DNA from: Escherichia coli
GTDB lineage: Bacteria > Pseudomonadota > Gammaproteobacteria > Enterobacterales > Enterobacteriaceae
Assembly (NCBI RefSeq): GCF_041886205.1
Contig: NZ_CP169029.1
Direction: 5' to 3' (one strand)
Length of the DNA: 64,000 nt
Made by a program: the position numbers and the translations under genes. Position 1 is the first letter of the stretch; the number at the start of each line of letters is the position of its first letter. The notes under the pieces are model-generated. The model was not told where the DNA came from. It saw only the letters and a list, made by a program, of their open reading frames with translations, and ran no database searches. Shown here piece after piece: positions 4,196-63,654 of the stretch.

Positions 4196-4370
4196 GTGCT
4201 GTATAAAAATTGCGCAATTCATTCGCTTACATTATGATGCGCACCAGTCACGGACTGATGGATATATAGACATAGGCTGACTCGTGCAGCACAAGATTAA
4301 ATTCTGGCAGATGATTTGCGTTAACCTGTTGAATCTGGCCAGAAAATAAAGTTGATTATGAGGTCCGTGA

Positions 4371-10200: not shown

Positions 10201-10794
10201 TCGCAGTGGGAACCGGTATTGACCGAGTGGATCACGGCTGTCCTCCAGGCACCTCTCAATGGAACGGGTGTTAGCCTGAGTCAGCTTTCCGACCGCGATA
10301 AACAGGTGGAGATGGAGTTTTACCTGCCGATTAGCGAACCGCTCATCGCCAGCCAGCTTGATGCACTAATTCGCCAGTTTGACCCGCTATCTGCTGGCTG
10401 CCCGCCGCTGGAGTTCATGCAGGTACGTGGCATGTTAAAAGGCTTTATCGACCTGGTGTTCCGCCACGAAGGGCGTTATTACCTGCTCGACTATAAATCC
10501 AACTGGTTGGGTGAAGACAGTTCGGCTTACACCCAACAGGCTATGGCGGCGGCGATGCAGGCACACCGCTATGATTTGCAATATCAGCTTTATACCCTGG
10601 CGCTACACCGTTATCTGCGCCATCGCATTGCTGATTACGACTATGATCGTCACTTTGGCGGCGTTATCTATCTGTTCCTGCGTGGCGTTGATAAAGAACA
10701 TCCGCAACAAGGGATTTACACAACCCGACCCAACGCCGGGTTGATTGCCCTGATGGATGAGATGTTTGCCGGTATGACCCTGGAGGAGGCGTAA
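7252..10794 (+). CDS. recB: exodeoxyribonuclease V beta subunit RecB (helicase-nuclease, 1180 aa)
   Basis: Internal ATG at 7252 gives [31 protein letters not shown] with Walker A GTGKT; overlaps the ptrA stop; length matches RecB. Confidence 0.96.
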
Positions 10795-12620
10795 TGAAAT
10801 TGCAAAAGCAATTACTGGAAGCTGTGGAGCACAAACAGCTACGCCCGCTGGATGTGCAATTTGCCCTGACCGTGGCGGGAGATGAACATCCTGCCGTCAC
10901 CCTCGCGGCGGCACTGTTAAGTCATGATGCCGGAGAGGGACACGTCTGTTTGCCGCTTTCACGACTGGAAAATAACGAGGCGTCGCATCCGCTGTTGGCG
11001 ACCTGTGTCAGTGAAATCGGTGAGCTACAAAATTGGGAAGAATGCTTGCTGGCTTCTCAAGCGGTCAGCAGGGGAGATGAACCCACGCCGATGATCCTCT
11101 GTGGCGATCGTCTTTATTTGAATCGCATGTGGTGTAACGAGCGGACGGTAGCGCGCTTCTTCAATGAGGTGAATCATGCCATTGAGGTTGATGAAGCTCT
11201 ACTGGCGCAAACCCTGGACAAACTTTTTCCAGTAAGCGATGAAATTAACTGGCAAAAAGTTGCAGCGGCAGTGGCGCTGACGCGGCGGATCTCGGTGATT
11301 TCCGGCGGCCCAGGCACCGGTAAAACGACCACCGTGGCGAAGTTGCTGGCAGCGTTAATTCAAATGGCCGACGGCGAACGCTGCCGTATCCGTCTGGCTG
11401 CACCAACGGGTAAAGCTGCCGCGCGCTTAACCGAATCTCTCGGCAAGGCTTTGCGACAGTTACCGCTGACCGATGAACAAAAGAAACGCATTCCGGAAGA
11501 TGCCAGCACTTTGCACCGATTGCTGGGCGCGCAGCCGGGTAGCCAGCGTTTACGTCATCATGCCGGTAACCCGCTGCATCTTGATGTGCTGGTGATAGAT
11601 GAAGCGTCAATGATCGATCTGCCTATGATGTCGAGACTGATCGACGCCTTGCCAGATCATGCGCGAGTGATCTTTCTCGGCGATCGTGATCAACTGGCCT
11701 CGGTTGAGGCTGGGGCTGTGCTGGGCGATATCTGCGCTTATGCCAACGCGGGCTTTACCGCCGAGCGTGCCAGGCAGCTAAGCCGCCTGACGGGGACTCA
11801 CGTTCCGGCAGGAACTGGCACAGAAGCGGCATCTTTGCGCGACAGTCTCTGCCTGCTGCAAAAAAGCTATCGTTTCGGCAGCGATTCTGGCATTGGTCAG
11901 TTAGCTGCGGCGATCAACCGTGGTGATAAAACGACAGTGAAAACCGTTTTTCAGCAGGATTTTACTGATATCGAAAAACGACTTTTACAGAGCGGCGAAG
12001 ATTATATTGCGATGCTTGAGGAAGCTCTTGCGGGTTATGGACGTTATCTGGATCTGCTGCAAGCGCGTGCCGAGCCGGATTTAATCATTCAGGCGTTCAA
12101 TGAGTACCAACTTTTGTGCGCCCTGCGGGAAGGGCCGTTTGGCGTGGCTGGACTGAATGAGCGAATTGAGCAGTTTATGCAACAGAAGCGCAAAATTCAT
12201 CGTAATCCGCACTCTCGTTGGTACGAAGGCCGACCGGTGATGATTGCCCGTAATGACAGCGCGCTTGGGTTGTTTAATGGCGATATCGGTGTCGCTCTGG
12301 ATCGCGGGCAGGGGACGCGCGTCTGGTTTGCGATGCCGGACGGCAATATTAAGTCTGTGCAACCGAGTCGCTTGCCAGAGCACGAAACTACGTGGGCGAT
12401 GACGGTACATAAATCGCAGGGATCGGAGTTCGACCATGCGGCGTTGATTTTGCCGAGCCAACGCACGCCGGTAGTAACGCGAGAGCTGGTTTATACCGCG
12501 GTGACCCGCGCGCGTCGCCGTCTGTCGCTGTATGCCGATGAGCGCATATTAAGTGCGGCAATCGCCACTCGTACTGAGCGGCGCAGTGGTCTGGCGGCGT
12601 TGTTTAGTTCACGGGAATAA
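10794..12620 (+). CDS. recD: exodeoxyribonuclease V alpha subunit RecD (608 aa)
   Basis: 608 aa, Walker [11 protein letters not shown]; start ATG overlaps the recB stop (TAATG) by 1 nt. Confidence 0.96.
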
Positions 12621-15756: not shown

Positions 15757-16581
15757 ATGATCATCGAAAAAGTCATGAACAATAATTGTGTACAGGCATC
15801 GGTGAACGGACAGGAGGTTATCATTTCTGGGCCTGGCGTTGGTTACAATAAAAAATATGGTATGTCGGTCCCTGAGCATCCTGCAAACCGGATTTTTTAT
15901 GTCAGAAATGAGCAAAAAAATAAACTCTACAAATTGATTGAGCATGTGGGTATTGAGTATATTTTTGTTGCCGAAAAGATAGTGCATTATGCGGAGAGTA
16001 ATCTCGAAAAAAAACTCAATCCATCGCTACTACTGATTCTTGCTGATCACATTTCGAATGCAATATCCCGAGTCGTCTCAGGCATACAAATTAATAATGT
16101 TTTCCTTGAGGAAATCAAAGCGTTGTACAAAGCAGAGTATGCAATAAGTCGTGATGCATTAACAATCATTAATGAGCAATTTAGCGTTCAACTACCGGAT
16201 GATGAGATTGGTTTTATAGCATTGCATATTTTAAATAATTATGAAAATTCAGTTGATTATGAATCAGTAAGGATCATTGAGCTGTCTCAAAAAATCACGG
16301 AGCTTATTGAAGTTGTTTATAACAGAAGGGTGGACAGAAGTTCATTTAACTACTCCAGATTTATGATGCACCTTAAATATTTTTCTAGTCGTGTGTTATG
16401 TAATGAAAAAATAAAACAGAAAAATATTGGTGATATCTATGAGCAGTTTCTTGAAAAAGATTTTCAGTTACAACGTGCCATTCATGAAATTGAAAGATAT
16501 CTGTACGCAACTTTTAAATATGATTTGATTCTGGAAGAGAAACTATATCTTTCTATTCGCATCAAAGTATTAATGGACTAA
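15757..16581 (+). CDS. BglG/LicT-family transcriptional antiterminator (CAT RNA-binding domain + PRD domains), ~274 aa
   Basis: N-terminus MIIEKVMNNNCVQASVNGQEVIISGPGVGYNKK is the typical CAT-domain start; ATG 15757 is preferred over the track start 15700 because of RBS gggag and because 15700 lies inside the leader hairpin. Confidence 0.85.
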   Translation: MIIEKVMNNNCVQASVNGQEVIISGPGVGYNKKYGMSVPEHPANRIFYVRNEQKNKLYKLIEHVGIEYIFVAEKIVHYAESNLEKKLNPSLLLILADHISNAISRVVSGIQINNVFLEEIKALYKAEYAISRDALTIINEQFSVQLPDDEIGFIALHILNNYENSVDYESVRIIELSQKITELIEVVYNRRVDRSSFNYSRFMMHLKYFSSRVLCNEKIKQKNIGDIYEQFLEKDFQLQRAIHEIERYLYATFKYDLILEEKLYLSIRIKVLMD

Positions 16582-16612
16582 TTATACATAACATTTTCAT
16601 GAGATAACCAGT

Positions 16613-18193
16613 ATGAAACAAAAGAAAGCCTGGAGTTTTTTTCAGAGCCTGGGGAAGGCATTTATGTATCCCATCGCTCTGTTAAGTGTATGTGGTATGA
16701 TGTTAGGGCTGGGAAGTGGTTTAGCCAGCGATGATATGGGAAAATTCATTCCAGTGTTGGCTATTCCGTTAATTAAAACCATACTTGATTTTATTGTTAG
16801 CCTTGGTTTGTTTGCCTTCGTTAATTTACCTGTATTGTTTGCGATAGCTATACCTTTGGGATTATTAAAAGAGAAAGATGATAAAGCCTATGGCGCTTTT
16901 TCTGGCTTAATTGGCTTTATGGCGATGCATCTTGGAACGAACTTTTATCTTAAACAGCACGACTTATTGGTAGCTGCTGACCAAATGTCGACACATGGGC
17001 AAACCATCATACTCGGGATCCAGTCCTACAATACCAGCGTGTTGGGTGGGATTGTGGCAGGGTTATTAGTCGCCAGCATGTATAAAAAGATCGTTAACTT
17101 ACGTATTCCTGAATCATTAGGGTTTTATAGTGGCCCACGCCTTGTGCCTATCATTACACTGATTGTGATGAGTGGATTTGGTCTGTTCATTCCTTTTATC
17201 TGGCCGCCATTTTTCAATCTTTTCATGCTCATTGGTCACTGGATTTCAACTTCCGGTCCTGTTGGTTATTTCTTCTATGCTGTTGCCGAACGCGTGACGA
17301 TACCTTTTGGCTTAAATCACTTGGTGACATCAGTTTTCCGCTTTACCCCAATCGGCGGATCGGCAGTGATTGGCGGTGAAGAGTATTACGGCACCCTGAA
17401 CATGTTTATGGCATACGTCAAAGAGAATGCGGTCATTCCGCTGGATTTGGCGGGGAAAATGGAGCAGGGCAAACTGATGATTCAGTATGGTCTGGCTGGA
17501 GCCGCGCTGGCGATGTATCGCACTGCTCATGCTCAAAACAGAAGGGCTATCAAAGCATTGCTGATTTCCGGTGTGCTCACGGTAATTATTGGCGGCGTCA
17601 GCGAGCCGATTGAATTTCTGTTCTTATTTGTCAGCCCGCTGTTGTTTGTCTTCCATGCCTTTATGAATGGATTGGCTAACATGGTTCTGCCATATATGGG
17701 CGTGAAGATGGGCTTTACTGGCGATCTGATTCAATTTATTAGCTTTGGTGTCTTACGTGGCACAAGAACGGGATGGCCATTAGCGGTATGTGTTGAAGTG
17801 GCTTATTTCTTCATTTATTACTTTGTGTTCCGTTGGACCATTCTCAAATTTAACCTGATGACTGTAGGCCGTGAAGAGTCCAGTCCTGTCACGCTGAACG
17901 CTCACGAAGAAACTGCAATAGCTAACATCCCAGTTCATGATAAATCAGAGTTGCAGGCAGCGGAGCAAATGGTTAAGGCTCTGGGTGGTAAAGAAAATAT
18001 TAAATCACTGGATAATTGTGTAACTCGTTTGCGTTTAACTATCGCGGATATGGGATTGATAGATGAGGCTGCAATAAAAAGGGCCGGAGGAATTGCGGTT
18101 GTGAAACTTGATCAAAATACCTTACAAGTCATTATCGGTACAAAAGTCATCGCCCTACGTCGGGATATGGATAATTACATGGGGATATGTTGA
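16613..18193 (+). CDS. PTS system glucose-family EIICB component (MalX/PtsG-like), 526 aa, no EIIA domain
   Basis: Multi-span membrane domain followed by C-terminal EIIB with the cysteine motif NCVTRLRLTIADMG; N-terminus MKQKKAWSFFQSLGKAFMYPIALL resembles PtsG/MalX. Confidence 0.9.
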   Translation: MKQKKAWSFFQSLGKAFMYPIALLSVCGMMLGLGSGLASDDMGKFIPVLAIPLIKTILDFIVSLGLFAFVNLPVLFAIAIPLGLLKEKDDKAYGAFSGLIGFMAMHLGTNFYLKQHDLLVAADQMSTHGQTIILGIQSYNTSVLGGIVAGLLVASMYKKIVNLRIPESLGFYSGPRLVPIITLIVMSGFGLFIPFIWPPFFNLFMLIGHWISTSGPVGYFFYAVAERVTIPFGLNHLVTSVFRFTPIGGSAVIGGEEYYGTLNMFMAYVKENAVIPLDLAGKMEQGKLMIQYGLAGAALAMYRTAHAQNRRAIKALLISGVLTVIIGGVSEPIEFLFLFVSPLLFVFHAFMNGLANMVLPYMGVKMGFTGDLIQFISFGVLRGTRTGWPLAVCVEVAYFFIYYFVFRWTILKFNLMTVGREESSPVTLNAHEETAIANIPVHDKSELQAAEQMVKALGGKENIKSLDNCVTRLRLTIADMGLIDEAAIKRAGGIAVVKLDQNTLQVIIGTKVIALRRDMDNYMGIC

Positions 18194-19401
18194 TGGATAT
18201 TTTTAATACCTCAATTTCTCGTAAAGGAACATATTGCACACAATGGGACTTTTGTGAAGACAGATTTGGTGTAAAAGATGTATTACCATTCTCTATTTCA
18301 GATATGGATCTTCCGATACCGGAAGCTATCATCAGAACATTAAAAAAACGTCTGGAACACCCGATTTTAGGGTACAGTCGTTGGCAGCATGATGACTATC
18401 TGAATTCGATAGTCAATTGGTATCATCAACAATATAAAACAGAGATTCAACCAGAATGGATCACCTATAGCCCAAGCGTGATGTATTCAATATCTAAGGC
18501 AATAGAAATATTGACATTGAATGGAGATAATATTCTCATTTTCACGCCTGTTTATAACGCATTTTTTGATGTGATTAAGCATAATGGTCGAAACATGCTA
18601 ACAACCTCTTTGATGAAAGAAAATGGGAGAGGCTACGTTATCAACTGGCAAGACTTTGAGCTTAAAATTAAAAGCGCGAAGATGGTGTTATTATGTAATC
18701 CTCATAACCCGACAGGAACGGTCTGGTCGGAAGACGATCTTCACAGAATCGCAGCATGCTGTGCAAGGCATAATATTTGGTTATGTTCAGATGAAATACA
18801 TAGTGATTTTGTTTTTAATCATAGTTTCACGTCAGCGCTAACAATAAAAGATGACAAAGTGGTGGTGTTTAATTCGATTTCGAAAACATTTAATGTTCCT
18901 GCGCTAACCGGATCATATATGATTTCAACTGACGATAATTTTAATCATAAGTTCAGAACGATATCGAGGTATCGCGATTTCGTAAACTCCCCATCAGTAC
19001 TGAATGTAATTGCGACCATTGTTGCCTATAATGAATGTGAAGAATGGTTAAAGTCGTTAAAGGTACATATTGCCTCTAACATTCAATTTACTTTGCAGTA
19101 TTTAAATGAAAATATTCCGGAATTGATCGTATGGCCAGCTGAGGGCTGCTATTTTTCGTGGGTTGATTGCTCGGCCCTTGGTTATCCCTTTGATAAATTT
19201 TACCGTCGATTAATTAACGAAGGGAGAGTAGGTATTATGGCGGGGCATGTTTATGGTACTGAAGGAGAGGGCTATCTGCGTCTTAATCTGGCCTGCAGTC
19301 GAGAAAAATTATATATGGGGCTTGCGCGCCTTGCGAGTGTAATTAAAAATATTAATCAGGAAAAAGAAAATGAACAATACGGATCTTATCCATCTTATTA
19401 A
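18187..19401 (+). CDS. PLP-dependent aminotransferase class I/II fold protein, MalY/PatB-like cystathionine beta-lyase (C-S lyase), 404 aa
   Basis: N-terminal RKGTYCTQWDF...FGVKDVLPFSISDMDLP and the SISKTFN lysine motif are typical of MalY/PatB; start overlaps the PTS stop. Confidence 0.85.
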   Translation: MLMDIFNTSISRKGTYCTQWDFCEDRFGVKDVLPFSISDMDLPIPEAIIRTLKKRLEHPILGYSRWQHDDYLNSIVNWYHQQYKTEIQPEWITYSPSVMYSISKAIEILTLNGDNILIFTPVYNAFFDVIKHNGRNMLTTSLMKENGRGYVINWQDFELKIKSAKMVLLCNPHNPTGTVWSEDDLHRIAACCARHNIWLCSDEIHSDFVFNHSFTSALTIKDDKVVVFNSISKTFNVPALTGSYMISTDDNFNHKFRTISRYRDFVNSPSVLNVIATIVAYNECEEWLKSLKVHIASNIQFTLQYLNENIPELIVWPAEGCYFSWVDCSALGYPFDKFYRRLINEGRVGIMAGHVYGTEGEGYLRLNLACSREKLYMGLARLASVIKNINQEKENEQYGSYPSY

Positions 19402-19966
19402 ACGTTTTATGCGTAACGAACATAAAGCAGTAGAAGAGGTTATTGATTCCCCCCTTTCGGAAGTCGCGAATTTAATTAAAATATTACAATCTTGCCAGGG
19501 AAAAGTTGTTTTTATTGGTGTTGGGAAATCTGGCATTATTGCCAGAAAACTTGCTGCAACATTTGCCAGCACCGGAACTCCCTCGTTTTTTGTTCACGGT
19601 ACGGAAGCGGTACACGGCGACCTTGGGATGGTGGCGAAAGACGATGTTGTTATTCTTATTTCAAACAGTGGTGAGACGGCGGAAATCCTGGCGACACTGC
19701 CTAGTTTGAAAAAAATGGGTAATTATTTGATCTCTTTTACCCGCAGTCATCACTCATCGCTTGCGATAAGTTGTGATTTATCTGTTGAAATCCCCGTCAA
19801 AAGTGAGGCGGATAATTTAGGTTTAGCACCGTCATGCTCGTCTACTGTTGTTCTGGTTGTTGGTGATGCGGTGGCGCTTGCACTCTCTGAATTGAAAAAA
19901 TTTACTCGTGCTGATTTCGGCTTATATCATCCAGGAGGTGCACTCGGCATTAAAGCAAATTCATAA
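19370..19966 (+). CDS. single SIS-domain sugar-phosphate isomerase, KpsF/GutQ-like but lacking CBS domains (198 aa)
   Basis: VVFIGVGKSGIIARKLAATFASTGTPSFFVHGTEAVHGDLGMV...ILISNSGET matches the arabinose-5-phosphate isomerase SIS domain; overlaps the preceding gene by about 30 nt. Confidence 0.8.
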   Translation: MNNTDLIHLIKRFMRNEHKAVEEVIDSPLSEVANLIKILQSCQGKVVFIGVGKSGIIARKLAATFASTGTPSFFVHGTEAVHGDLGMVAKDDVVILISNSGETAEILATLPSLKKMGNYLISFTRSHHSSLAISCDLSVEIPVKSEADNLGLAPSCSSTVVLVVGDAVALALSELKKFTRADFGLYHPGGALGIKANS

Positions 19967-20037
19967 TTTCAAAGTATAAATACAGTAACCGGTCACGCCA
20001 TCTTTTGGGGTGGCGTTCATTGAAGTGAGTGTCAGCT

Positions 20038-20985
20038 ATGAAAAATGTTCTGGTCACCGTCCCCAACTTTTCAGCACGCTGTGTTTCCGCCAGCAAGTTG
20101 CTAAGAGAGAATAATTTTAATCTTATTATTAAGAATAATGTGGAGCATCTGCTTAAATCAGAATCCACTGCATTACGAGAATCTATTTGCGCGGTCATCG
20201 CCGGAAAAGATTGTTATCAGGCGGACACGCTATCATTGCTGCCTGGTGTGAAAATAATATCAAGATTCGGGACGGGGATAGATAATATTGATCTTCGTGC
20301 AGCACAACAATCCGGTATTGTAGTCAATAATGCGGTTGGGATTAATTCAAATGCTGTCGCGGAATTTATCATTGGACTTATCTTCGCGAGCATGAGAAAT
20401 ATTCCAGGCAGCTATCATGCGATGCAAAATGGCTACTGGGGTGAGTCGCATGGCTATGAATTACAAGGCAAACGGATTGGCATGGTTGGCTACGGCAATA
20501 TAGGTAAAACCCTGGCAAAAAGGTTATCCGGTTTTGATGTTGAGCTTTTAGCTTATGACAAACAACCCGATTATCAGGTTGCTGACAAAGTTGGAGTTCA
20601 GTTTGTATCAATTGAAGATATCTTTATGCAGTCGCATGTCATCATTGTTCTTTTGCCTTTTTCTCCTGAGCTGGAGAACTTCATTAGTCATAAATATTTG
20701 TCGATGATGCGCAATGGTGCTCTAATCATCAATGCCGCAAGGGGAAAGTTGCTGGATGAGGGCGCTTTACTACAGGTGATTGAAGAACGAAATGTGTTTG
20801 CGGCGCTGGATGTGTTTAGCTCTGAACCGTTGGCGCAATTTAGCCCACTGCTACATGCCAAAAATATCATTACAACGCCGCATATTGCGGCCGCCACCGT
20901 TGAGTCATACCAGCAAACCGGTACACACGTTGCCCAGTCGATAATTGATTACTTCGCAGGAAGGGAGATAAAAAACGTGTTGTGA
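20038..20985 (+). CDS. D-isomer-specific 2-hydroxyacid dehydrogenase family NAD-binding protein (~315 aa)
   Basis: Rossmann motif GKRIGMVGYGNIGKTLAKRL and the family pattern ...LLPFSPELENFIS...; ATG 20038 preferred over the GTG at 20029 (uncertain). Confidence 0.8.
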   Translation: MKNVLVTVPNFSARCVSASKLLRENNFNLIIKNNVEHLLKSESTALRESICAVIAGKDCYQADTLSLLPGVKIISRFGTGIDNIDLRAAQQSGIVVNNAVGINSNAVAEFIIGLIFASMRNIPGSYHAMQNGYWGESHGYELQGKRIGMVGYGNIGKTLAKRLSGFDVELLAYDKQPDYQVADKVGVQFVSIEDIFMQSHVIIVLLPFSPELENFISHKYLSMMRNGALIINAARGKLLDEGALLQVIEERNVFAALDVFSSEPLAQFSPLLHAKNIITTPHIAAATVESYQQTGTHVAQSIIDYFAGREIKNVL

Positions 20986-21063: not shown

Positions 21064-21140
<77 letters not shown>

Positions 21141-21172
21141 TCACCGTACTGCTTTATTTCATCAAATTTGAT

Positions 21173-21249
<77 letters not shown>

Positions 21250-21282
21250 TCACCGTACTGCTTTACTTCATCAAATTTTAAT

Positions 21283-21359
<77 letters not shown>

Positions 21360-25682: not shown

Positions 25683-25888
25683 AAAAAAAAGCACCGCAAT
25701 TAGGCGGTGCTACATTAATCACTATGGACAGACAGGGTAAATGTACAGGAAGTGAAAAAAGGTAGCTTTGCTACCATGGTCTGAATCGCAGACCAATTGC
25801 AAACACAACAACACAACATCACAACCGTAAGCCAAAAGTTCACCAGAACACGCATTCCGATAAAACTTTTCGTTCCGGCTCAGGAAGT
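25683..25888 (-). ncRNA. gcvB: GcvB small regulatory RNA (~206 nt), divergent from gcvA
   Basis: Minus-strand reading starts ACTTCCTGAGCCGGAACGAAAAGTTTTATCGGAATG, contains the GU-rich TGTGATGTTGTGTTGTGTTTGCAATTGGTCTG region, and ends with hairpin GCACCGCCTAATTGCGGTGC plus U8. Confidence 0.9.
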
Positions 25889-33469: not shown

Positions 33470-34969
33470 ATGTCCGAAACATTTTTGCAAATGAAGCATA
33501 TCACCAAACGCTTTCCTGGAGTGTTGGCGCTTAATGACGTGCAATTTTCCCTACGCCGGGGCGAGGTTCATGCATTATTAGGTGAAAATGGTGCAGGAAA
33601 ATCTACCTTAATGAAAATTTTGTCGGGGGTTTATCAACCTGATGAAGGCGAAATAATTTTTGAAGATAAACCAGTCTCATTTTCTGATCCGTTAAGTGCG
33701 CAAAACGTAGGTATTACTATTATTCACCAGGAATTTAATTTATTTCCCGAGCTTACAGTAGAAGAAAATATTTTTATCGGCAGGGAGTTTTGTAAAAAAA
33801 ATCGCTGGCGTCTGGATGAAAAACAGCAACGCCAGGCGACGATTGAAATTTTGCAAAAATTAAATTTGGCGATCAAACCAGATACTCTGGTTGCCGACCT
33901 TACGGTAGCTCAGCAGCAGATGGTAGAAATTGCCAAGGCCATTTCAGTTAACGCCAGGATTCTCATTATGGATGAACCTACTGCGGCGTTAACAGAAACT
34001 GAAATTGAAAGCTTATTTCGCGTCACCCGGTTATTGAAAGAGCAGGGGACCGGCATTGTTTATATCTCCCACCGTCTGGAAGAGTTGGCGCTAATTGCCG
34101 ACCGTGCGACTGTAATGCGTGATGGTCAGTACATCAGCACGGTGGATTATGAGTGCGTAAAAATCAGCGATCTGATTGCCATGATGGTTGGTCGCGATTT
34201 AGGGAATATCTATCCCCGCCGCGAGGCCTTGCAGCAGCGGATTCCGGTTCTGGAGGTAAACGGACTGACGCGCAAAGGCGTCCTGAACGATATTAATTTT
34301 ACGCTTTATCGTGGCGAGATCCTCGGCTTTGCCGGACTGATGGGCGCGGGGCGTACTGAACTTGCGCGTGCGATTTTTGGTGCGGATTCTATTGACAGCG
34401 GAACGCTAAAATTAAATGGTAAGGAAACCGTTATTAAAGATATTTCGGATGCTATTCAGCAGGGAATTAGTTACCTGACGGAAGACCGCAAAAAAGAAGG
34501 GCTGGCGCTGAATTTATCTGTTGAACGAAATATTATGTTAGGAAACTACCCTGAATATTCCGATCGTTTTGGGAATGTCGATTCGCGTCGTTGCCAACAA
34601 ACCAGTGAGGAACAGGTAAAAGCGTTAAGGATTAAAACGCCAAATCTTGAACAGGCGGCATTAAATCTAAGTGGAGGAAACCAGCAGAAAATTATAATTG
34701 CACGTTGGGTGTGTAAAGATACTGATATTTTAATCTTCGATGAACCCACTCGCGGCATTGATGTTGGCGCCAAACTGGAAATCTATGAGTTAATGAATCG
34801 CCTGGTGGCAAAAGGGAAATCAATCATCATGATCTCCTCTGAATTGCCTGAGGTGTTAGGAATGTGCGACCGTATTTTAGTGATGCGCAGTGGTCGAATT
34901 ACCGGCGAACTTAGCGCAAAAGAAGCGACACAAGAAAAAATTATGCAATACGCGACGTTAGAGGATTAA
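33470..34969 (+). CDS. sugar ABC transporter ATP-binding protein with two fused ABC domains (CUT2 family, RbsA/MglA-like), ~499 aa
   Basis: ATG 33470 preferred over TTG 33455 (RBS gaggaaag); Walker A GENGAGKST, signature LSGGNQQK in the second half, and total length indicate a duplicated ABC ATPase. Confidence 0.9.
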   Translation: MSETFLQMKHITKRFPGVLALNDVQFSLRRGEVHALLGENGAGKSTLMKILSGVYQPDEGEIIFEDKPVSFSDPLSAQNVGITIIHQEFNLFPELTVEENIFIGREFCKKNRWRLDEKQQRQATIEILQKLNLAIKPDTLVADLTVAQQQMVEIAKAISVNARILIMDEPTAALTETEIESLFRVTRLLKEQGTGIVYISHRLEELALIADRATVMRDGQYISTVDYECVKISDLIAMMVGRDLGNIYPRREALQQRIPVLEVNGLTRKGVLNDINFTLYRGEILGFAGLMGAGRTELARAIFGADSIDSGTLKLNGKETVIKDISDAIQQGISYLTEDRKKEGLALNLSVERNIMLGNYPEYSDRFGNVDSRRCQQTSEEQVKALRIKTPNLEQAALNLSGGNQQKIIIARWVCKDTDILIFDEPTRGIDVGAKLEIYELMNRLVAKGKSIIMISSELPEVLGMCDRILVMRSGRITGELSAKEATQEKIMQYATLED

Positions 34970-34972
34970 ATT

Positions 34973-35956
34973 ATGACTATCTCTGTAACCTCTCCAGACA
35001 GTAATAATAAGAAAATAAAGATAAATAAAGAACTTTTGATGCGTCTTGCGCCTCTTTTTAGCTTAATTATATTAGTGCTGTTTTTTAGTTTCAGCTCTCC
35101 CTTTTTCTTTAATACCGAAAATATCATGACGATTGCTCTGCAAACGTCGGTTATCGGCATTATGGCCATTGGGGTAACTTTCGTCATTATTACCGCGGGC
35201 ATCGATCTTTCATTGGGCTCCGTGGTGGCTTTTTCTGGTGTCGCCGTGGGGATTTGCGCCACACTGGGCCTGCCGCTGCCAGTGTGTATTATTGCCGGTG
35301 TTTTAGCCGGTGGAATGTGCGGCTATGTGAATGGTTTGTTGGTCACTAAAATGACCATTCCACCATTTATCGCTACCTTGGGCCTGATGATGTCCGTCAG
35401 AGGTATCAATATGGTGATGACCGACGGGCGCGCCATCTATTTTGCCGATTACCCGATGTTCAAAACGCTCGCTCAGGGACGCTTATTTGATGTGCTGCCT
35501 TATCCTGTTTTCTACCTTGTCATTGTAGCGCTTGTCGGCGCTTACATCCTGAAGAAAACCGTCATTGGTCGCTATGTCTATGCCGTAGGCAGTAATGAAG
35601 TTGCTGCTCATCTTTCTGGTATTAAAGTTCAGCGCGTGAAAATTTTCGTCTATGCCTTCTGTGGATTATTAACGGGGATTGCAGGTGTCATTCTGGCATC
35701 TCGTCTCAACTCCGGACAACCGACGGTAGGTGTGGGTTATGAACTGGAAGCTATTGCCGCGGTAGTGATTGGCGGAACCAGCTTAATGGGCGGTATTGGC
35801 ACTATTGGCGGCACAATCATTGGCGCTTTCATTATGAGTGTACTGAAAAATGGCCTCAATTTAATGGGCGTCTCCCAGTTCTGGCAAATGGTCGCGATGG
35901 GCGTCGTTGTGGTCGCTGCCGTTTACCTCGATACATTACGCAAAAAGATTCGTTGA
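34973..35956 (+). CDS. sugar ABC transporter permease (RbsC/AraH-like, 327 aa)
   Basis: Polytopic membrane protein; ATG 4 nt after the ATPase stop with RBS gagga. Confidence 0.88.
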   Translation: MTISVTSPDSNNKKIKINKELLMRLAPLFSLIILVLFFSFSSPFFFNTENIMTIALQTSVIGIMAIGVTFVIITAGIDLSLGSVVAFSGVAVGICATLGLPLPVCIIAGVLAGGMCGYVNGLLVTKMTIPPFIATLGLMMSVRGINMVMTDGRAIYFADYPMFKTLAQGRLFDVLPYPVFYLVIVALVGAYILKKTVIGRYVYAVGSNEVAAHLSGIKVQRVKIFVYAFCGLLTGIAGVILASRLNSGQPTVGVGYELEAIAAVVIGGTSLMGGIGTIGGTIIGAFIMSVLKNGLNLMGVSQFWQMVAMGVVVVAAVYLDTLRKKIR

Positions 35957-36029
35957 CTTAGGCTCCCTGTTTTATCGGGAAACAACTGCCCTGACGTTAA
36001 GGGTGATTCACTCAGAACGGAGTACAACA

Positions 36030-36980
36030 ATGAAAACCAGGCATTTTATCTATGCGTTATCTCTGCTGGCTTGCGTAAGTTCCAGCGCACTGGCGAAGGA
36101 TTTAAATCTTCCGGTTGTTAGTAAAGGTTTCCAACATGAATTCTGGCAAACCGTAAAAATGGGGACTGAAGCTGCGGCTAAAGAGTTGGGGGATAAAACC
36201 AGCTATGTTGGCCCGGCTGATGAAACGCAAATAGCCGAGCAAATTCAGTTAGTCGAAAATGCGATGGCGCAGAAACCGAATGGCTTGCTTCTGGCAGCCC
36301 TCGACGCGAATGCGCTCGCCCCACTGGTAGAAACGGCAAATTCACGCGGTATCAAAGTGGTGACCTTTGATTCAGGCATCAATTCAGACATTCCGGTGAG
36401 TTTTGTCGCCACCAATAACCGTAAAGCAGGTGCTCAGGCAGCTGATGCCTTAGCCTCGCAGGTAAATAATAAAGGGAAAGTTGGGATTATCGCGCACGTT
36501 GCAGGAACATCTTCCGCTATTGAACGCTCGGAAGGCTTCATGGAGCGTATGAAAGAAAAATATCCTGACATTAAAGTCTTACCCGTTCAGTACAGCGATG
36601 GTGACCCGCAAAAAGCGATGGATAAAACTATCGATATGATTCAGGCCAATCCCGATCTTGCTGGGATCTATGGCACCAATGAAGGTTCAACGCTCGGGGT
36701 GGCGAATGCCATTGATAGCCAGAATCTGAAAGGTAAGGTGAAGGTCATTGGTTTTGATAGTACGGAAGCGATTATTAACTTCCTGAAGAACGGCGTCATT
36801 CAGGGCTTTGTTGTTCAGGATGCATACCAGATTGGCTATCAAGGGATCAAAACGTTGAACGCGGCCCTTTCGGGGCAAGCCGTTGAAAAAGAGATCGATA
36901 TTCCCGTGAAATTTGTTAATGCCGAGAATATTAACACGCCAGAAATCGACAAACTCCTGCACCCATTCGGTAAGAAATAA
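36030..36980 (+). CDS. periplasmic sugar-binding protein (RbsB-like, type I PBP fold), ~316 aa
   Basis: Internal ATG at 36030 gives MKTRHFIYALSLLACVSSSALA, a signal peptide; the track ORF upstream extension overlaps the permease and lacks signal-peptide character. Confidence 0.88.
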   Translation: MKTRHFIYALSLLACVSSSALAKDLNLPVVSKGFQHEFWQTVKMGTEAAAKELGDKTSYVGPADETQIAEQIQLVENAMAQKPNGLLLAALDANALAPLVETANSRGIKVVTFDSGINSDIPVSFVATNNRKAGAQAADALASQVNNKGKVGIIAHVAGTSSAIERSEGFMERMKEKYPDIKVLPVQYSDGDPQKAMDKTIDMIQANPDLAGIYGTNEGSTLGVANAIDSQNLKGKVKVIGFDSTEAIINFLKNGVIQGFVVQDAYQIGYQGIKTLNAALSGQAVEKEIDIPVKFVNAENINTPEIDKLLHPFGKK

Positions 36981-37032
36981 AAAATTGGGGATGAATTTTC
37001 ATCCCCGTTATCTCCAGCGTCAGGGAGGCTTT

Positions 37033-38613
37033 ATGCACAACGGTTATTTTCTCGGTGTCGATGTCGGATCGGCCAGTGTCAGGGCAGGCGTTTACAGTGC
37101 CAGTGGCCACAGGCTGGCATTCGCTACTGCGCCCGTCTCCCAGTTTCGCCCTGGCGGCGAGCGTGTCGAACAGTCTTCGGCAGAGATCTGGCAACAAGTT
37201 TGTAAAACGGTGAAAGAGGCGACAGCTTTGGCAGGCATCCCCATTTCCGCAATTCGCTCACTGGGTTTTGACGCTACCTGCTCGCTGGTTGTTCTTGATG
37301 AACAAGGCCAGGGTTTAGCGGTTTCGTCCGGTGGATCTGCGAATCACGACATTATTATGTGGATGGATCATCGTGCAACTGTCGAGACGGCGCAGATTAA
37401 CGCAATGAAGGATCCCGCATTGCGCTACGTTGGCGGCGAAGTGAGCGTCGAGATGGAGTTACCAAAGTTACGTTGGTTGAAGACGCATCTACCGCAAACC
37501 TGGCAGGCCGCTCATCGCTTTTTCGATCTGGCGGATTTTCTGGTCTGGAAAGCAACAGGGCGAGACGTCGCGGGATTATGCACGCTAACGTGTAAATGGA
37601 ATTATCTAGCTCATGAGCAACGCTTTAGCCATAGCTTACTGGAATCGATAGACCTGACCGATATGCTTGAAAGAATTCCTGCCAACATTCTTCCGCCTGG
37701 CGCTGCCGTGGGAACGTTAACCGCCACAGCTGCTGAAGAGTTAGGATTAACGACTAATGTTATCGTGGCCAGTGGCTTGATTGATGCCCATGCCGGTGGC
37801 GTGGCGCTGGCTGGCGCTCACCCATCAGGAACGCTGGCATTGATAAGCGGAACGTCGAACTGCCATATGCTGTGTAGTGAAAAAGAGATATTCACCCCTG
37901 GCGTCTGGGGGCCATACTGGTCGGCCATGTTGCCAAATTACTGGCTAACCGAAGGCGGGCAAAGCGCCGCAGGGGCGCTGGTGGAGTGGACGCTTCAGGA
38001 GTCAGGGGCAAGCGCAAATCTTTTTCACAAGGCGCAGCAACGCGGATGTCATCCGATTCAACTGATTAATGAATGGGTAGCAGCCCTTGAAGCTAACGAG
38101 TCAGAACCCACACGAAATTTACATGTGCTTGCCGATCATCACGGCAACCGTTCGCCACGAGCGCGGCCCGATGCCAGAGGCAGTGTTTATGGCTTAACAC
38201 TGGAGCGTGGTGAAAATCAGCTCGCGCGACTTTATCTTGCGACTTTACAGGCAATAGCCTTTGGCACCAGACATATTATTGAAACTCTGCGGGAAAATGG
38301 GCATACCATTACCCGATTAACATTATGTGGTGGTGCAACGCACAACCCTTTATGGCTACGCGAATATGCAGACGTGACAGGTTGCGATATCCACCTGATG
38401 CAAGAAGAAGATGCCGTTACGTTGGGCGCAGCAATTAGCGGCGCTGTTGCCAGCGGAGCATGGGGGGATTTTACATCTGCGTGTAAAGCAATGGTTGAAG
38501 CCGGAGAGATTATTCAGGTAAATCCACAACGCCGTGAATTTTTAGAGCGTAAATACCGGGTTTACCTGACGCTTTGGGAGCAACAACAGGCGGTTAACCA
38601 ACTGATGCAATAA
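37033..38613 (+). CDS. FGGY-family carbohydrate kinase, pentulose-kinase-like subgroup (~526 aa)
   Basis: Internal ATG at 37033 (RBS cagggagg) gives MHNGYFLGVDVGSASVRAGVY, the FGGY N-terminal motif; GTSNCHM motif mid-protein; the track ORF start at 36913 overlaps the binding-protein gene. Confidence 0.87.
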   Translation: MHNGYFLGVDVGSASVRAGVYSASGHRLAFATAPVSQFRPGGERVEQSSAEIWQQVCKTVKEATALAGIPISAIRSLGFDATCSLVVLDEQGQGLAVSSGGSANHDIIMWMDHRATVETAQINAMKDPALRYVGGEVSVEMELPKLRWLKTHLPQTWQAAHRFFDLADFLVWKATGRDVAGLCTLTCKWNYLAHEQRFSHSLLESIDLTDMLERIPANILPPGAAVGTLTATAAEELGLTTNVIVASGLIDAHAGGVALAGAHPSGTLALISGTSNCHMLCSEKEIFTPGVWGPYWSAMLPNYWLTEGGQSAAGALVEWTLQESGASANLFHKAQQRGCHPIQLINEWVAALEANESEPTRNLHVLADHHGNRSPRARPDARGSVYGLTLERGENQLARLYLATLQAIAFGTRHIIETLRENGHTITRLTLCGGATHNPLWLREYADVTGCDIHLMQEEDAVTLGAAISGAVASGAWGDFTSACKAMVEAGEIIQVNPQRREFLERKYRVYLTLWEQQQAVNQLMQ

Positions 38614-38677
38614 GACAAAAGTTGAAAATACTTTTATGATTGTGATTTGACGTCTGGATGTTAACTGGGAAATACCT

Positions 38678-39676
38678 ATGGCTAAAACAGTAGAGCAGAT
38701 AGCCAGCGACCTGAATTTATCGGTTACGACCGTGCGACTGGTGCTAAATGGAAAAGCGGAACAATATCGAATCAGCGTCAAAACCCAAACGCGTATCAAT
38801 GAATATGTTGAACGCTATGGTTATATCATTAATCATTCCGCTCGCAGCCTTAAGCTTAACAAAACTGATACATTAGGGTTGATTGTTCCCAACATATCCA
38901 ACGTCTTTTTTGCTACGCTGGCAGAAAAACTCGAACAACGCTGTCGACGTTCCGGATATCAACTTACAATCAGTTGCACTTATGATGATGTTGACTATGA
39001 AAATAAATTGACGAAAGCATTTATCGCACGAAATGTAGATGGTCTTTTTATTGTTCCTTCGACGCTGGAAAATCAGCAGCATCATTTACGCAAAATTCGT
39101 AAGCCCATGGTTTTACTCGATCGTGATTTTAAATATACCGATAACGCATTGGTAGAGAGTAATAATATTTCTGGCGGAGAAAAGCTGACGCAAAATATTC
39201 TTGAGGCCGGGCAGACTCCAGTATGGTTTTTGCTGGGAGATGCCGGTTTGCCGAGTATCAGCGATCGTCTGACAGGTTATTTGAATGCGTTGGCAAAAAA
39301 AGGGATTACCCATCGCGATTGGGTGCGGGAAGGTCCGGTAAATACTCCGGAAGGCGGCTATGTCATTATGGAAAAACTCATTGAAGAGCAGGGATGTCCG
39401 CAGGCATTTATCGCCTCGTCTTTGCCTGTGCTTGAAGGCGCTGTCCGCGCGATTCGCGACCGTCTTGGCGCTGTACCGCCAGAAATCAATATTGGCACTT
39501 TCGATGAACATCCTATGCTGGGATTTCTCGCCAACAATGTCTGGTCAATGCAGCAGGATGAAAATGCCTGGGCAGAAAAAGCGTTCGAAATGATGTTAAG
39601 CGCGATCGAAGAAAGACCAGTCAAAAAAACAGTTAAAGTAGAAATGAAATTAATTAAGCGCATAAGAAAAAAATAA
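38678..39676 (+). CDS. LacI/GalR-family transcriptional regulator (332 aa)
   Basis: N-terminal HTH region followed by a periplasmic-binding-protein-like sugar-binding fold (LGLIVPNISNVFFATLAEKLE). Confidence 0.88.
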   Translation: MAKTVEQIASDLNLSVTTVRLVLNGKAEQYRISVKTQTRINEYVERYGYIINHSARSLKLNKTDTLGLIVPNISNVFFATLAEKLEQRCRRSGYQLTISCTYDDVDYENKLTKAFIARNVDGLFIVPSTLENQQHHLRKIRKPMVLLDRDFKYTDNALVESNNISGGEKLTQNILEAGQTPVWFLLGDAGLPSISDRLTGYLNALAKKGITHRDWVREGPVNTPEGGYVIMEKLIEEQGCPQAFIASSLPVLEGAVRAIRDRLGAVPPEINIGTFDEHPMLGFLANNVWSMQQDENAWAEKAFEMMLSAIEERPVKKTVKVEMKLIKRIRKK

Positions 39677-49031: not shown

Positions 49032-49388
49032 GAGTCAGACAACGAAGTGAACATCAGGATGATGACACTTCTGCAGGACACACCAGGATGGTGTTTCAGG
49101 GAAAGGCTTCTGGATGAAGCGAAGAGGATGACGCAGGACGCGTTAAAGGACACCTCCAGGATGGAGAATGAGAACCGGTCAGGATGATTCGGTGGGTCAG
49201 GAAGGCCAGGGACACTTCAGGATGAAGTATCACATCGGGGTGGTGTGAGCAGGAAGCAATAGTTCAGGATGAACGATTGGCCGCAAGGCCAGAGGAAAAG
49301 TTGTCAAGGATGAGCAGGGAGCAACAAAAGTAGCTGGAATGCTGCGAAACGAACCGGGAGCACTGTGAATACAGTGCTCCCTTTTTTT
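49032..49388 (+). ncRNA. csrB: CsrB small RNA (CsrA-sequestering sRNA with repeated GGA motifs)
   Basis: Starts GAGTCAGACAACGAAGTGAACATCAGGATGATGACAC; carries about 16-18 GGA motifs, many as CAGGATG; ends with hairpin GGGAGCACTGTGAATACAGTGCTCCC plus U7 (49356-49388). Confidence 0.92.
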
Positions 49389-49433
49389 ATTCCTGCTATC
49401 CTTCGCGGCAGTTTTTCTTATTGAGGTTGCTTT

Positions 49434-59896: not shown

Positions 59897-62131
59897 ATGG
59901 TTGCGGTAAGAAGTGCACATATCAATAAGGCTGGTGAATTTGATCCGGAAAAATGGATCGCAAGTCTGGGTATTACCAGCCAGAAGTCGTGTGAGTGCTT
60001 AGCCGAAACCTGGGCGTATTGTCTGCAGCAGACGCAGGGGCATCCGGATGCCAGTCTGTTATTGTGGCGTGGTGTTGAGATGGTGGAGATCCTCTCGACA
60101 TTAAGTATGGACATTGACACGCTGCGGGCGGCGCTGCTGTTCCCTCTGGCCGATGCCAACGTAGTCAGCGAAGATGTGCTGCGTGAGAGCGTCGGTAAGT
60201 CTGTCGTTAACCTTATTCACGGCGTGCGTGATATGGCGGCGATCCGCCAGCTGAAAGCGACGCACACTGATTCTGTTTCCTCCGAACAGGTCGATAACGT
60301 TCGCCGGATGTTATTGGCGATGGTCGATGATTTTCGCTGCGTGGTCATCAAACTGGCGGAGCGTATTGCTCATCTGCGCGAAGTAAAAGATGCGCCGGAA
60401 GATGAACGCGTACTGGCGGCAAAAGAGTGCACCAATATCTACGCGCCGTTGGCGAACCGTCTTGGGATTGGGCAACTGAAATGGGAGCTGGAAGATTACT
60501 GCTTCCGTTATCTGCACCCGACCGAATACAAACGCATCGCAAAACTGCTGCATGAACGCCGTCTCGACCGCGAACACTATATCGAAGACTTTGTCGGTCA
60601 TCTGCGCGCTGAGATGAAAGCTGAAGGCGTTAAAGCTGAAGTGTATGGCCGTCCGAAACACATCTACAGCATCTGGCGCAAAATGCAGAAAAAGAACCTC
60701 GCCTTCGATGAGCTGTTTGATGTGCGTGCGGTACGTATTGTCGCCGAGCGTTTACAGGATTGTTATGCCGCACTGGGGATAGTGCACACTCACTATCGCC
60801 ACCTGCCGGATGAGTTTGACGATTATGTCGCTAACCCGAAACCAAACGGTTATCAGTCTATTCATACCGTGGTTCTGGGGCCAGGTGGCAAAACCGTTGA
60901 GATCCAAATCCGCACCAAACAGATGCATGAAGATGCAGAGTTGGGTGTTGCTGCGCACTGGAAATATAAAGAGGGCGCGGCAGCTGGCGGCGCACGTTCG
61001 GGACATGAAGACCGGATTGCCTGGCTGCGTAAACTGATTGCGTGGCAGGAAGAGATGGCTGATTCCGGCGAAATGCTCGACGAAGTACGCAGCCAGGTCT
61101 TTGACGACCGGGTGTATGTCTTTACGCCGAAAGGTGATGTCGTTGATTTACCTGCGGGATCAACGCCGCTGGACTTCGCTTACCACATCCACAGTGATGT
61201 CGGACACCGCTGCATCGGGGCAAAAATTGGCGGGCGCATTGTGCCGTTCACCTACCAGCTGCAGATGGGCGACCAGATTGAAATTATCACCCAGAAACAG
61301 CCGAACCCCAGCCGTGACTGGTTAAACCCAAACCTCGGTTACGTCACAACCAGCCGTGGGCGTTCGAAAATTCACGCCTGGTTCCGTAAACAGGACCGTG
61401 ACAAAAACATTCTGGCTGGGCGGCAAATCCTTGACGACGAGCTGGAACATCTGGGGATCAGCCTGAAAGAAGCAGAAAAACATCTGCTGCCGCGTTACAA
61501 CTTTAATGATGTCGACGAGTTGCTGGCGGCGATTGGTGGCGGGGATATCCGTCTCAATCAGATGGTGAACTTCCTGCAATCGCAATTTAATAAGCCGAGT
61601 GCCGAAGAGCAGGACGCCGCCGCGCTGAAGCAACTTCAGCAAAAAAGCTACACGCCGCAAAACCGCAGTAAAGATAACGGTCGCGTGGTAGTCGAAGGTG
61701 TTGGCAACCTGATGCACCACATCGCGCGCTGCTGCCAGCCGATTCCTGGAGATGAGATTGTCGGCTTCATTACCCAGGGGCGCGGTATTTCAGTACACCG
61801 CGCCGATTGCGAACAACTGGCGGAACTGCGCTCCCATGCGCCAGAACGCATTGTTGACGCGGTATGGGGTGAGAGCTACTCCGCCGGATATTCGCTGGTG
61901 GTCCGCGTGGTGGCTAATGATCGTAGTGGGTTGTTACGTGATATCACGACCATTCTCGCCAACGAGAAGGTGAACGTGCTTGGCGTTGCCAGCCGTAGCG
62001 ACACCAAACAGCAACTGGCGACCATCGACATGACCATTGAGATTTACAACCTGCAAGTGCTGGGGCGCGTGCTGGGTAAACTCAACCAGGTGCCGGATGT
62101 TATCGACGCGCGTCGGTTGCACGGGAGTTAG
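59897..62131 (+). CDS. relA: GTP pyrophosphokinase RelA ((p)ppGpp synthetase I, 744 aa)
   Basis: 744 aa; MVAVRSAHINKAGEFDPEKWIASLG; followed by mazEFG. Confidence 0.96.
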   Translation: MVAVRSAHINKAGEFDPEKWIASLGITSQKSCECLAETWAYCLQQTQGHPDASLLLWRGVEMVEILSTLSMDIDTLRAALLFPLADANVVSEDVLRESVGKSVVNLIHGVRDMAAIRQLKATHTDSVSSEQVDNVRRMLLAMVDDFRCVVIKLAERIAHLREVKDAPEDERVLAAKECTNIYAPLANRLGIGQLKWELEDYCFRYLHPTEYKRIAKLLHERRLDREHYIEDFVGHLRAEMKAEGVKAEVYGRPKHIYSIWRKMQKKNLAFDELFDVRAVRIVAERLQDCYAALGIVHTHYRHLPDEFDDYVANPKPNGYQSIHTVVLGPGGKTVEIQIRTKQMHEDAELGVAAHWKYKEGAAAGGARSGHEDRIAWLRKLIAWQEEMADSGEMLDEVRSQVFDDRVYVFTPKGDVVDLPAGSTPLDFAYHIHSDVGHRCIGAKIGGRIVPFTYQLQMGDQIEIITQKQPNPSRDWLNPNLGYVTTSRGRSKIHAWFRKQDRDKNILAGRQILDDELEHLGISLKEAEKHLLPRYNFNDVDELLAAIGGGDIRLNQMVNFLQSQFNKPSAEEQDAAALKQLQQKSYTPQNRSKDNGRVVVEGVGNLMHHIARCCQPIPGDEIVGFITQGRGISVHRADCEQLAELRSHAPERIVDAVWGESYSAGYSLVVRVVANDRSGLLRDITTILANEKVNVLGVASRSDTKQQLATIDMTIEIYNLQVLGRVLGKLNQVPDVIDARRLHGS

Positions 62132-62208
62132 GCCGAAATTTGCTCGTATCTACAATGTAGATTGATATATACTGTATCTACATATGATAGCGGTTTGAGG
62201 AAAGGGTT

Positions 62209-62457
62209 ATGATCCACAGTAGCGTAAAGCGTTGGGGAAATTCACCGGCGGTGCGGATCCCGGCTACGTTAATGCAGGCGCTCAATCTGAATATTGATGA
62301 TGAAGTGAAGATTGACCTGGTGGATGGCAAATTAATTATTGAGCCAGTGCGTAAAGAGCCCGTATTTACGCTTGCTGAACTGGTCAACGACATCACGCCG
62401 GAAAACCTCCACGAGAATATCGACTGGGGAGAGCCGAAAGATAAGGAAGTCTGGTAA
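62209..62457 (+). CDS. mazE: antitoxin MazE (82 aa)
   Basis: [47 protein letters not shown], an AbrB/SpoVT-type fold. Confidence 0.95.
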
Positions 62458-62792
62458 TGGTAAGCCGATACGTACCCGATATGGGCGATCTGATTTGGGT
62501 TGATTTTGACCCGACAAAAGGTAGCGAGCAAGCCGGACATCGTCCGGCTGTTGTCCTGAGTCCGTTCATGTACAACAACAAAACAGGTATGTGTCTGTGT
62601 GTTCCTTGTACAACGCAATCAAAAGGATATCCGTTCGAAGTTGTTTTATCCGGTCAGGAACGTGATGGCGTAGCGTTAGCTGATCAAGTAAAAAGTATCG
62701 CCTGGCGGGCAAGAGGAGCAACGAAGAAAGGAACGGTTGTCCCAGAGGAATTACAACTCATTAAAGCCAAAATTAACGTACTGATTGGGTAG
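62457..62792 (+). CDS. mazF: mRNA interferase toxin MazF (ACA-specific endoribonuclease, 111 aa)
   Basis: [36 protein letters not shown]; start overlaps the mazE stop. Confidence 0.95.
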   Translation: MVSRYVPDMGDLIWVDFDPTKGSEQAGHRPAVVLSPFMYNNKTGMCLCVPCTTQSKGYPFEVVLSGQERDGVALADQVKSIAWRARGATKKGTVVPEELQLIKAKINVLIG

Positions 62793-62862
62793 TGTTACTA
62801 ACTCACTTCTATTCTGGTCACAGGTTTCCACCTGACAGACCCGCAATTTTCAGGACATTCTA

Positions 62863-63654
62863 ATGAATCAAATCGACCGTTTGCTCACTATTATGCAGCG
62901 CCTGCGCGATCCGGAAAACGGCTGCCCGTGGGATAAAGAGCAGACATTTGCCACCATTGCGCCTTACACCCTTGAAGAAACCTACGAAGTGCTGGACGCC
63001 ATCGCCCGTGAAGATTTTGACGATCTGCGCGGTGAACTGGGCGATCTGCTATTCCAGGTGGTGTTTTACGCGCAAATGGCTCAGGAAGAAGGGCGCTTTG
63101 ACTTTAATGATATTTGCGCTGCTATTAGCGATAAATTAGAGCGTCGCCATCCGCATGTTTTTGCTGATAGTTCTGCCGAAAACAGTAGTGAAGTGCTTGC
63201 CCGTTGGGAGCAAATCAAAACCGAAGAGCGCGCGCAGAAAGCGCAGCATTCGGCGCTGGACGATATTCCTCGTAGTTTACCGGCTTTAATGCGGGCGCAA
63301 AAAATCCAGAAACGTTGCGCCAACGTTGGCTTCGACTGGACGACGCTTGGCCCGGTGGTTGATAAAGTCTACGAAGAGATCGACGAGGTGATGTACGAGG
63401 CGCGGCAGGCTGTTGTCGACCAGGCTAAACTGGAGGAGGAAATGGGGGACCTGCTGTTTGCCACGGTTAATCTGGCTCGCCATTTAGGGACGAAAGCAGA
63501 AATCGCATTGCAAAAAGCGAACGAAAAATTCGAGCGTCGTTTTCGCGAAGTGGAGCGTATTGTTGCCGCGCGTGGACTGGAAATGACAGGTGTTGACCTC
63601 GAAACAATGGAAGAAGTCTGGCAACAGGTAAAACGGCAGGAAATTGATCTCTAA
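62863..63654 (+). CDS. mazG: nucleoside triphosphate pyrophosphohydrolase MazG (263 aa)
   Basis: 263 aa with tandem MazG domains; downstream of mazEF. Confidence 0.94.
   Translation: MNQIDRLLTIMQRLRDPENGCPWDKEQTFATIAPYTLEETYEVLDAIAREDFDDLRGELGDLLFQVVFYAQMAQEEGRFDFNDICAAISDKLERRHPHVFADSSAENSSEVLARWEQIKTEERAQKAQHSALDDIPRSLPALMRAQKIQKRCANVGFDWTTLGPVVDKVYEEIDEVMYEARQAVVDQAKLEEEMGDLLFATVNLARHLGTKAEIALQKANEKFERRFREVERIVAARGLEMTGVDLETMEEVWQQVKRQEIDL

Follow-up and report, generated by a model that had tools for sequence, protein, structure and literature searches.

The mazEF module of Escherichia coli was the first chromosomal toxin-antitoxin system to be described, and early work on it was confused by relA1 laboratory strains. 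In K-12 the antitoxin MazE and the toxin MazF (chpAI/chpAK; b2783/b2782; PDB 1UB4, 1MVF, 3NFC, 5CR2) are encoded in the gene order relA-mazE-mazF-mazG-pyrG. The same PemK/MazF fold and AbrB-type antitoxin family are found in ChpBS/ChpBK, the second chromosomal MazEF paralogue of E. coli, and in Kis/Kid (PemI/PemK) of plasmids R1/R100. Plasmids of Klebsiella, Providencia and Proteus (e.g. pDD02172-3, IncF) carry a further mazEF pair with the same overlapping two-gene layout.

Work on K-12 suggests how such a module would operate (PMC5888573; PMC4333400; PMC8749433; PMC12541390). MazE dimers would bridge MazF dimers in an inactive MazF2-MazE2-MazF2 complex, and this complex would bind a three-site operator and thereby repress the mazEF promoter. 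MazE would be unstable, being degraded by ClpAP or Lon, and MazF set free from it would cut single-stranded RNA at ACA. Its likely targets include many mRNAs, its own transcript, ribosomal-protein mRNAs and rRNA precursors, and their cleavage would lead to less ribosome production and to slower translation and growth. The earlier ideas that MazF acts through leaderless mRNAs and specialised ribosomes have not been upheld since (PMC12541390).

The locus is almost certainly the canonical mazEF module

Here we describe a mazEF locus in a 64,000-nt stretch of DNA (the window), which is E. coli chromosome and colinear with strain AH04 over all 64 kb at 99.0-99.3% identity; all 50 genes annotated in the AH04 stretch are intact in the window. 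The gene pair and its surroundings are as follows.

59897-62131, + strand: relA, GTP diphosphokinase, 744 aa, intact (ORF listing; HD_4, RelA_SpoT, TGS and ACT domains)
62197-62206, + strand: probable ribosome-binding region of mazE, GAGGAAAGGG, with 2 nt between it and the ATG (read from the sequence)
62209-62457, + strand: mazE, antitoxin, ATG start, 82 aa (six-frame ORF listing and sequence)
62443-62449, + strand: probable mazF ribosome-binding site, AAGGAAG, within the mazE 3' end and 7 nt ahead of the ATG (read from the sequence)
62457-62792, + strand: mazF, toxin, endoribonuclease of the PemK/MazF fold, ATG start, 111 aa (ORF listing and sequence)
62863-63654, + strand: mazG, nucleoside triphosphate pyrophosphohydrolase, 263 aa, intact (ORF listing, domains, NCBIfam)

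The two reading frames form an antitoxin-first bicistron with overlapping ORFs: at the junction, gtctggTAATGgta, they share one base (TAATG), the last A of the mazE TAA being the A of the mazF ATG. Neither the ORF listing nor the sequence revealed a frameshift or premature stop in mazE or mazF. A 77-nt spacer separates relA from mazE and a 70-nt spacer separates mazF from mazG, beyond which lies the start of pyrG, so that the chromosomal order is relA-mazE-mazF-mazG-pyrG as in K-12. The position of the mazF ribosome-binding site within mazE, together with the one-nucleotide overlap, suggests that translation of the two genes may be coupled.

Homology to characterised proteins is equally close. 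An 801-nt stretch around mazEF has 100% DNA identity to AH04 and to several complete genomes in which mazE and mazF are annotated. MazE matches the E. coli MazE structures PDB 1MVF/1UB4 (crystal, NMR; 1UB4 chain C) at 82 of 82 residues, and MazF matches PDB 3NFC/5CK9 at 110 of 111, with A95V the sole difference. Domain models agree: PF04014 lies at residues 6-51 of MazE, which scores 196.2 bits against the NCBIfam equivalog NF007312 (cut-off 113), while MazF scores 83 bits against PF02452 (cut-off 23.1) and 225.6 bits against the equivalog NF007386 (cut-off 120). DNA identity to annotated mazE/mazF and equivalog scores this high show homology, as opposed to a chance pair of ORFs. The pair also gave weak matches to the NCBIfam ChpB and ChpS models (54 vs 129 and 34.6 vs 101 bits) and to Kid (PDB 1M1F); the ChpB and ChpS scores fall far under the equivalog cut-offs, and the window pair is therefore not chpB or kis-kid.

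Comparison with K-12 MG1655 at the same locus showed no difference in the 77-nt spacer with its operator or in the 249 nt of mazE. In mazF there are six differing positions, five of them synonymous and the sixth giving A95V (62740, GCC->GTC). MazG is identical to the K-12 protein, and RelA differs at one residue, E231D. From these comparisons, in which no sequence evidence against the identification was found, we conclude that the locus is almost certainly the canonical chromosomal type II toxin-antitoxin module mazEF (chpA) of E. coli. The initial annotation had proposed just this, namely an intact chromosomal mazEF pair of known biology at 62209-62792, with mazF overlapping the mazE stop, relA upstream and mazG downstream, and it proved correct in every respect that could be checked, down to the single shared base.

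A common MazF allele with valine at position 95

The V95 form of MazF has a RefSeq non-redundant accession of its own, WP_000254739.1, and its exact sequence, like that of the K-12 toxin, is found on at least 1000 contigs. The residues E24, R29 and T52 were all present when read from the translation, and an E24A mutant of MazF is inactive (PMC5888573). An AlphaFold2 model built from a 5-sequence alignment reached a mean pLDDT of 42, unreliable for placing residue 95.

Toxin-antitoxin modules are known to decay through point mutations that inactivate the toxin. Since A95V is the sole protein difference from the K-12 toxin, and since K-12, strain 536 and the 70%-identical Klebsiella plasmid MazF all have alanine at position 95, the V95 protein might be attenuated or inactive and the pair a decaying module that merely appears intact. 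We consider this highly improbable: the change is conservative, residue 95 lies outside the residues known for catalysis, the neighbouring positions 96-97 vary between MazF homologues, and the allele is as widespread as noted above, occurring also in the unrelated isolate PK8568. Moreover, non-synonymous changes in mazF are few overall. Against K-12 they make up one of the six differences, where ~75% would be expected without constraint (P=0.005), and across seven E. coli genomes four of 13 (P=0.001); this shows that mazF is under purifying selection at the protein level. On the reading that we prefer, that of an intact module, we infer from the 99% identity to the characterised K-12 MazF that the window protein would be toxic, specific for ACA and neutralised by MazE.

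The transcript of the pair, itself a predicted target of MazF, contains two ACA sites in mazE and eight in mazF, as against published K-12 counts of two and nine (PMC5888573). The site missing relative to K-12 was removed by one of the silent changes in mazF, at Thr93 (ACA->ACG at 62735).

Operator, transcription and the antisense RNA aMEF

Three regulatory features overlap the gene pair or lie just upstream of it.

62143-62192, + strand: MazE/MazEF operator 'cab' with three MazE-dimer sites (exact match to the 50-nt oligonucleotide of PMC4333400)
62098-62497, - strand: region homologous to the K-12 antisense RNA aMEF (b4844), 400/400 identical to K-12 2911051-2911450
62498-62572, - strand: aMEF promoter fragment, 75 bp upstream of the start site, inside mazF; non-canonical

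The 50-nt 'cab' operator is the one used in MazE-DNA binding studies (PMC4333400). Its arms ATCTACA/TGTAGAT (62148-62162, ATCTACA-A-TGTAGAT) interlock with a second palindrome, ATGTAGAT/ATCTACAT, which a repeat search placed at 62155-62162 and 62176-62183, and its core is ATATAT. A palindromic, putatively autoregulatory operator thus lies upstream of mazE. Besides its position behind relA, mazEF has an autoregulated promoter and operator of its own.

Transcription of mazEF would also enter from relA, because a scan of the relA-mazE interval on the + strand found no terminator-like site. Such a terminator-free interval is consistent with the relA-mazEFG polycistronic transcript recorded in K-12 (PMC6343021). 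A scan for consensus promoters was uninformative, since it found sites no more numerous than in shuffled sequence and missed the known promoters.

The initial annotation did not include aMEF, a 400-nt RNA that the current K-12 annotation lists opposite mazE. By coordinate transfer, and given the 400/400 identity, a homologous putative aMEF region in the window would run from a start 40 nt within mazF to an end 34 nt within relA, antisense to all of mazE and to the operator. In K-12, aMEF stimulates mazEF expression and is made from a weak, non-canonical promoter (PMC8749433); an overlapping RNA of this kind would fine-tune expression of the module. The 75-bp promoter fragment differs from K-12 by three of the silent mazF changes, at -37, -49 and -67, so that antisense regulation in the window strain is uncertain. 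Our scan found no sigma-70-like site in this fragment, and PMC8749433 reports likewise.

mazEF is an accessory cassette whose role is disputed

To place the locus among its relatives, we compared it with complete E. coli genomes and with other enterobacterial species. Of 5426 complete E. coli genomes, 4418 have a single copy of mazE and mazF, located at one place on the chromosome. Flanking sequence from relA and mazG was detected in 5425, of which ~1007 (~19% of complete E. coli) lack the cassette. Comparison with these mazEF-less genomes defines its extent.

62132-62821, + strand: mazEF cassette, 690 bp, consisting of operator/promoter, mazE, mazF and 29 nt

In mazEF-less E. coli, the relA stop is followed by ~53 nt that include a 12-bp hairpin, and homology resumes at window 62822. 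BLAST found nothing significant between this hairpin-bearing filler and the Citrobacter relA terminator, their likeness being that of REP-type hairpins in general. With ~19% of genomes lacking the module, mazEF is dispensable in nature.

A pattern scan of relA 3' ends, with one genome per bacterial species, found eight Enterobacteriaceae other than E. coli (E. albertii, three Citrobacter, two Enterobacter, Yokenella and Pluralibacter), and in all eight mazG directly follows relA and there is no MazE or MazF match. In E. albertii, 30 nt similar to the operator's left end remain around inserted REP-like elements, along with a 15-nt match to the 3' terminus of mazF and the spacer to its right; judged by these remnants, the site resembles a deletion scar.

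Among plasmids, the E. coli cassette was not found at high identity, save in one mislabelled chromosome record, and no phage copies were found. The mazEF pairs of Klebsiella, Providencia and Proteus are more distant: although their MazF is 70% identical, their MazE is only 40% identical, their DNA matches at ~70% over 46% of the cassette, and they reside on conjugative or mobilisable plasmids and not between relA and mazG. An accessory distribution is not new in kind: Fiedoruk et al., 2015 (as cited in PMC6343021) described toxin-antitoxin systems as unevenly spread across the phylogroups of E. coli.

E. coli SW07163 presents an unusual arrangement (locus L005, 2288-3354): an IS1 lies 33 nt upstream of an intact mazF, and mazE, cut after nt 238, is found elsewhere in the genome with relA. 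The toxin gene thus has neither its promoter nor a complete antitoxin gene beside it.

These distributions bear on what the module is for. The initial annotation held that its position places MazF under stringent-response control. The neighbourhood of relA and mazG is as it described; the control itself is not readable from gene order and restates one published view. Down-regulation of mazEF by ppGpp has been published and is still repeated (PMC12541390), and together with programmed cell death it belongs to the earlier proposals for mazEF. Contrary work reports that mazEF induction is independent of ppGpp, that deletion of five toxin-antitoxin systems causes no stress phenotype, that the mazEF cell-death phenotype is not reproducible, and that the original strains had faults (PMC11951105; bioRxiv 10.1101/048728). 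The stringent-response link is therefore published and in dispute. Given that a fifth of E. coli genomes and the related genera lack the cassette, adjacency to relA is no evidence of a stringent-response function.

One could go further and regard mazEF as a selfish, dispensable cassette that is kept by addiction, with no real role in the stringent response or in stress and with its place beside relA an accident. The ~1007 genomes with a short spacer in place of the cassette, the uninterrupted relA-mazG order in the eight other species, the apparent scar in E. albertii and the IS1-cut mazE of one strain would all fit such an element, as would the published five-system deletion and the irreproducible cell death. 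Against it stand the purifying selection on mazF and the invariance of MazE across phylogroups, the retention of the module at a single site in 81% of genomes without a plasmid- or phage-borne source from which it could be re-introduced, and a 2025 study which reports that MazF at native levels aids the restart of growth by relieving transcription-replication conflicts at rRNA operons (PMC12541390). We take the selfish explanation to be possible, though on the whole unlikely, and it bears on the role of mazEF and not on its identity or biochemistry.

An anti-phage role, in which the shut-off of transcription by an infecting phage depletes MazE and frees MazF to abort the infection, has been considered as well. 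Reviews cite the exclusion of phage P1 and the inactivation of MazF by the T4 ADP-ribosyltransferase Alt (PMC6343021), a counter-measure which implies that MazF exerts some pressure on phage. However, no model in PADLOC-DB 2.0 matched MazE, MazF or MazG at E<=0.01, the neighbours of the cassette are housekeeping genes and form no defence island, and no phage was found with a related cassette. That abortive infection is the main role of the module seems to us distinctly improbable. The role of mazEF is debated, the proposals including an adjunct to the stringent response, help in growth restart, phage exclusion and mere self-maintenance.

Defence and stress genes elsewhere in the window

The initial annotation described mazEF as the only defence- or stress-type module in the window. 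This is right for dedicated toxin-antitoxin and defence systems, of which PADLOC found none; read literally it is too broad, as recC-ptrA-recB-recD, relA, barA, CsrB and GcvB are also present. The PADLOC scan of 50 window proteins returned the families PDC-S68, typeIV_RecD, GajB, SspA/DndA and E1-E2. As defence systems these matches were rejected: the RecD-type, SspA/DndA and E1-E2 hits were traced to the housekeeping paralogues RecD, CsdA and TcdA, and the GajB (UvrD-helicase) matches are most likely RecB. Other features of the window are listed here.

827-12620: recC-ptrA-recB-recD (window gene annotation)
21067-21359, - strand: three tandem tRNA-Met genes (Rfam)
25683-25888, - strand: GcvB (Rfam)
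49032-49391, + strand: CsrB (Rfam)

CsrB lies ~6 kb from barA, and both belong to the BarA/UvrY-Csr regulatory system. Two further loci are variable among E. coli. At 33470-39676, between fucI and fucA, genes for an ABC sugar transporter, an FGGY-family kinase and a regulator of the LacI type stand where K-12 has fucP; no more than 381 of 5426 complete genomes, E. coli B derivatives among them, share this arrangement. The second locus is a five-gene island (15757-20985), flanked by amiC and the three tRNA-Met genes and encoding a PRD-domain regulator, a PTS EIIC, a MalY/PatB protein, a SIS-domain protein and a phosphoglycerate dehydrogenase. Of 5426 genomes, 1689 have this island, with alleles that fall into two classes (>=99% and 90-95%), and its PRD gene is intact in the window and frameshifted in AH04.

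mazE DNA is nearly invariant

To compare variation along the locus, we used seven diverse E. coli genomes picked for the overall divergence of a 1.6-kb stretch. mazE has a single segregating site in 249 nt, as against 76/1632 in relA, 13/336 in mazF, 32/792 in mazG and 7/77 in the upstream spacer (~4% of sites in relA, mazF and mazG, and 9% in the spacer); the difference between mazE and the flanking coding sequence is significant (Fisher P = 6e-4). Pairwise diversity in the same genomes is tenfold lower in mazE (0.0019 vs 0.0175). The stretch of low variation takes in mazE and its edges, window 62192-62481. Among the 4418 genomes with the module, mazE is identical to that of the window in ~77% and >=99% identical in 96%, whereas mazF is identical in ~3% and >=99% identical in 9.6%; the minority status of the mazF allele in the window accounts for part of this population contrast.

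Two explanations were tried and set aside. RNA structure as the cause found no support in folding, which was no better than for shuffled sequence on either strand (z = +0.58 sense, -1.0 for the aMEF strand). A 146-codon stop-free antisense ORF (62618-62178, - strand) covers all of mazE and part of mazF, and we regard it as a shadow ORF: its codons share their third positions with mazE, and it would therefore place no constraint on synonymous sites. Its product is Ser/Thr-rich and of low complexity, and the Klebsiella homologue has no comparable ORF. Within this antisense frame, GTG/ATG codons at 62396/62393 follow a GGAGG inside the region homologous to aMEF.

A constraint of a kind not previously described, acting on the DNA or RNA sequence and not on the protein, might keep mazE invariant, and we judge this improbable. 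Synonymous changes in mazE are tolerated, as a rare lineage with five of them indicates. Should such a constraint exist, it might reflect tight selection on how fast MazE is made, and through this on the toxin:antitoxin ratio, or a functional interaction between the sense transcript and antisense transcription of aMEF; a trivial cause is also possible, such as short-tract recombination that spread one allele, or sampling. The candidates that remain are selection on the MazE synthesis rate or short-tract recombination that spread one allele.

Discussion

The mazEF copy in the window is already known, being essentially that of K-12, and the locus is an ordinary one. Its value is for annotation: it offers an intact locus with a common V95 toxin allele and with an overlapping antisense RNA region, as in the newer K-12 annotation. 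It also presents mazEF in a relA+ background, in contrast to the relA1 laboratory strains. The invariance of mazE DNA is the one loose end of some value.
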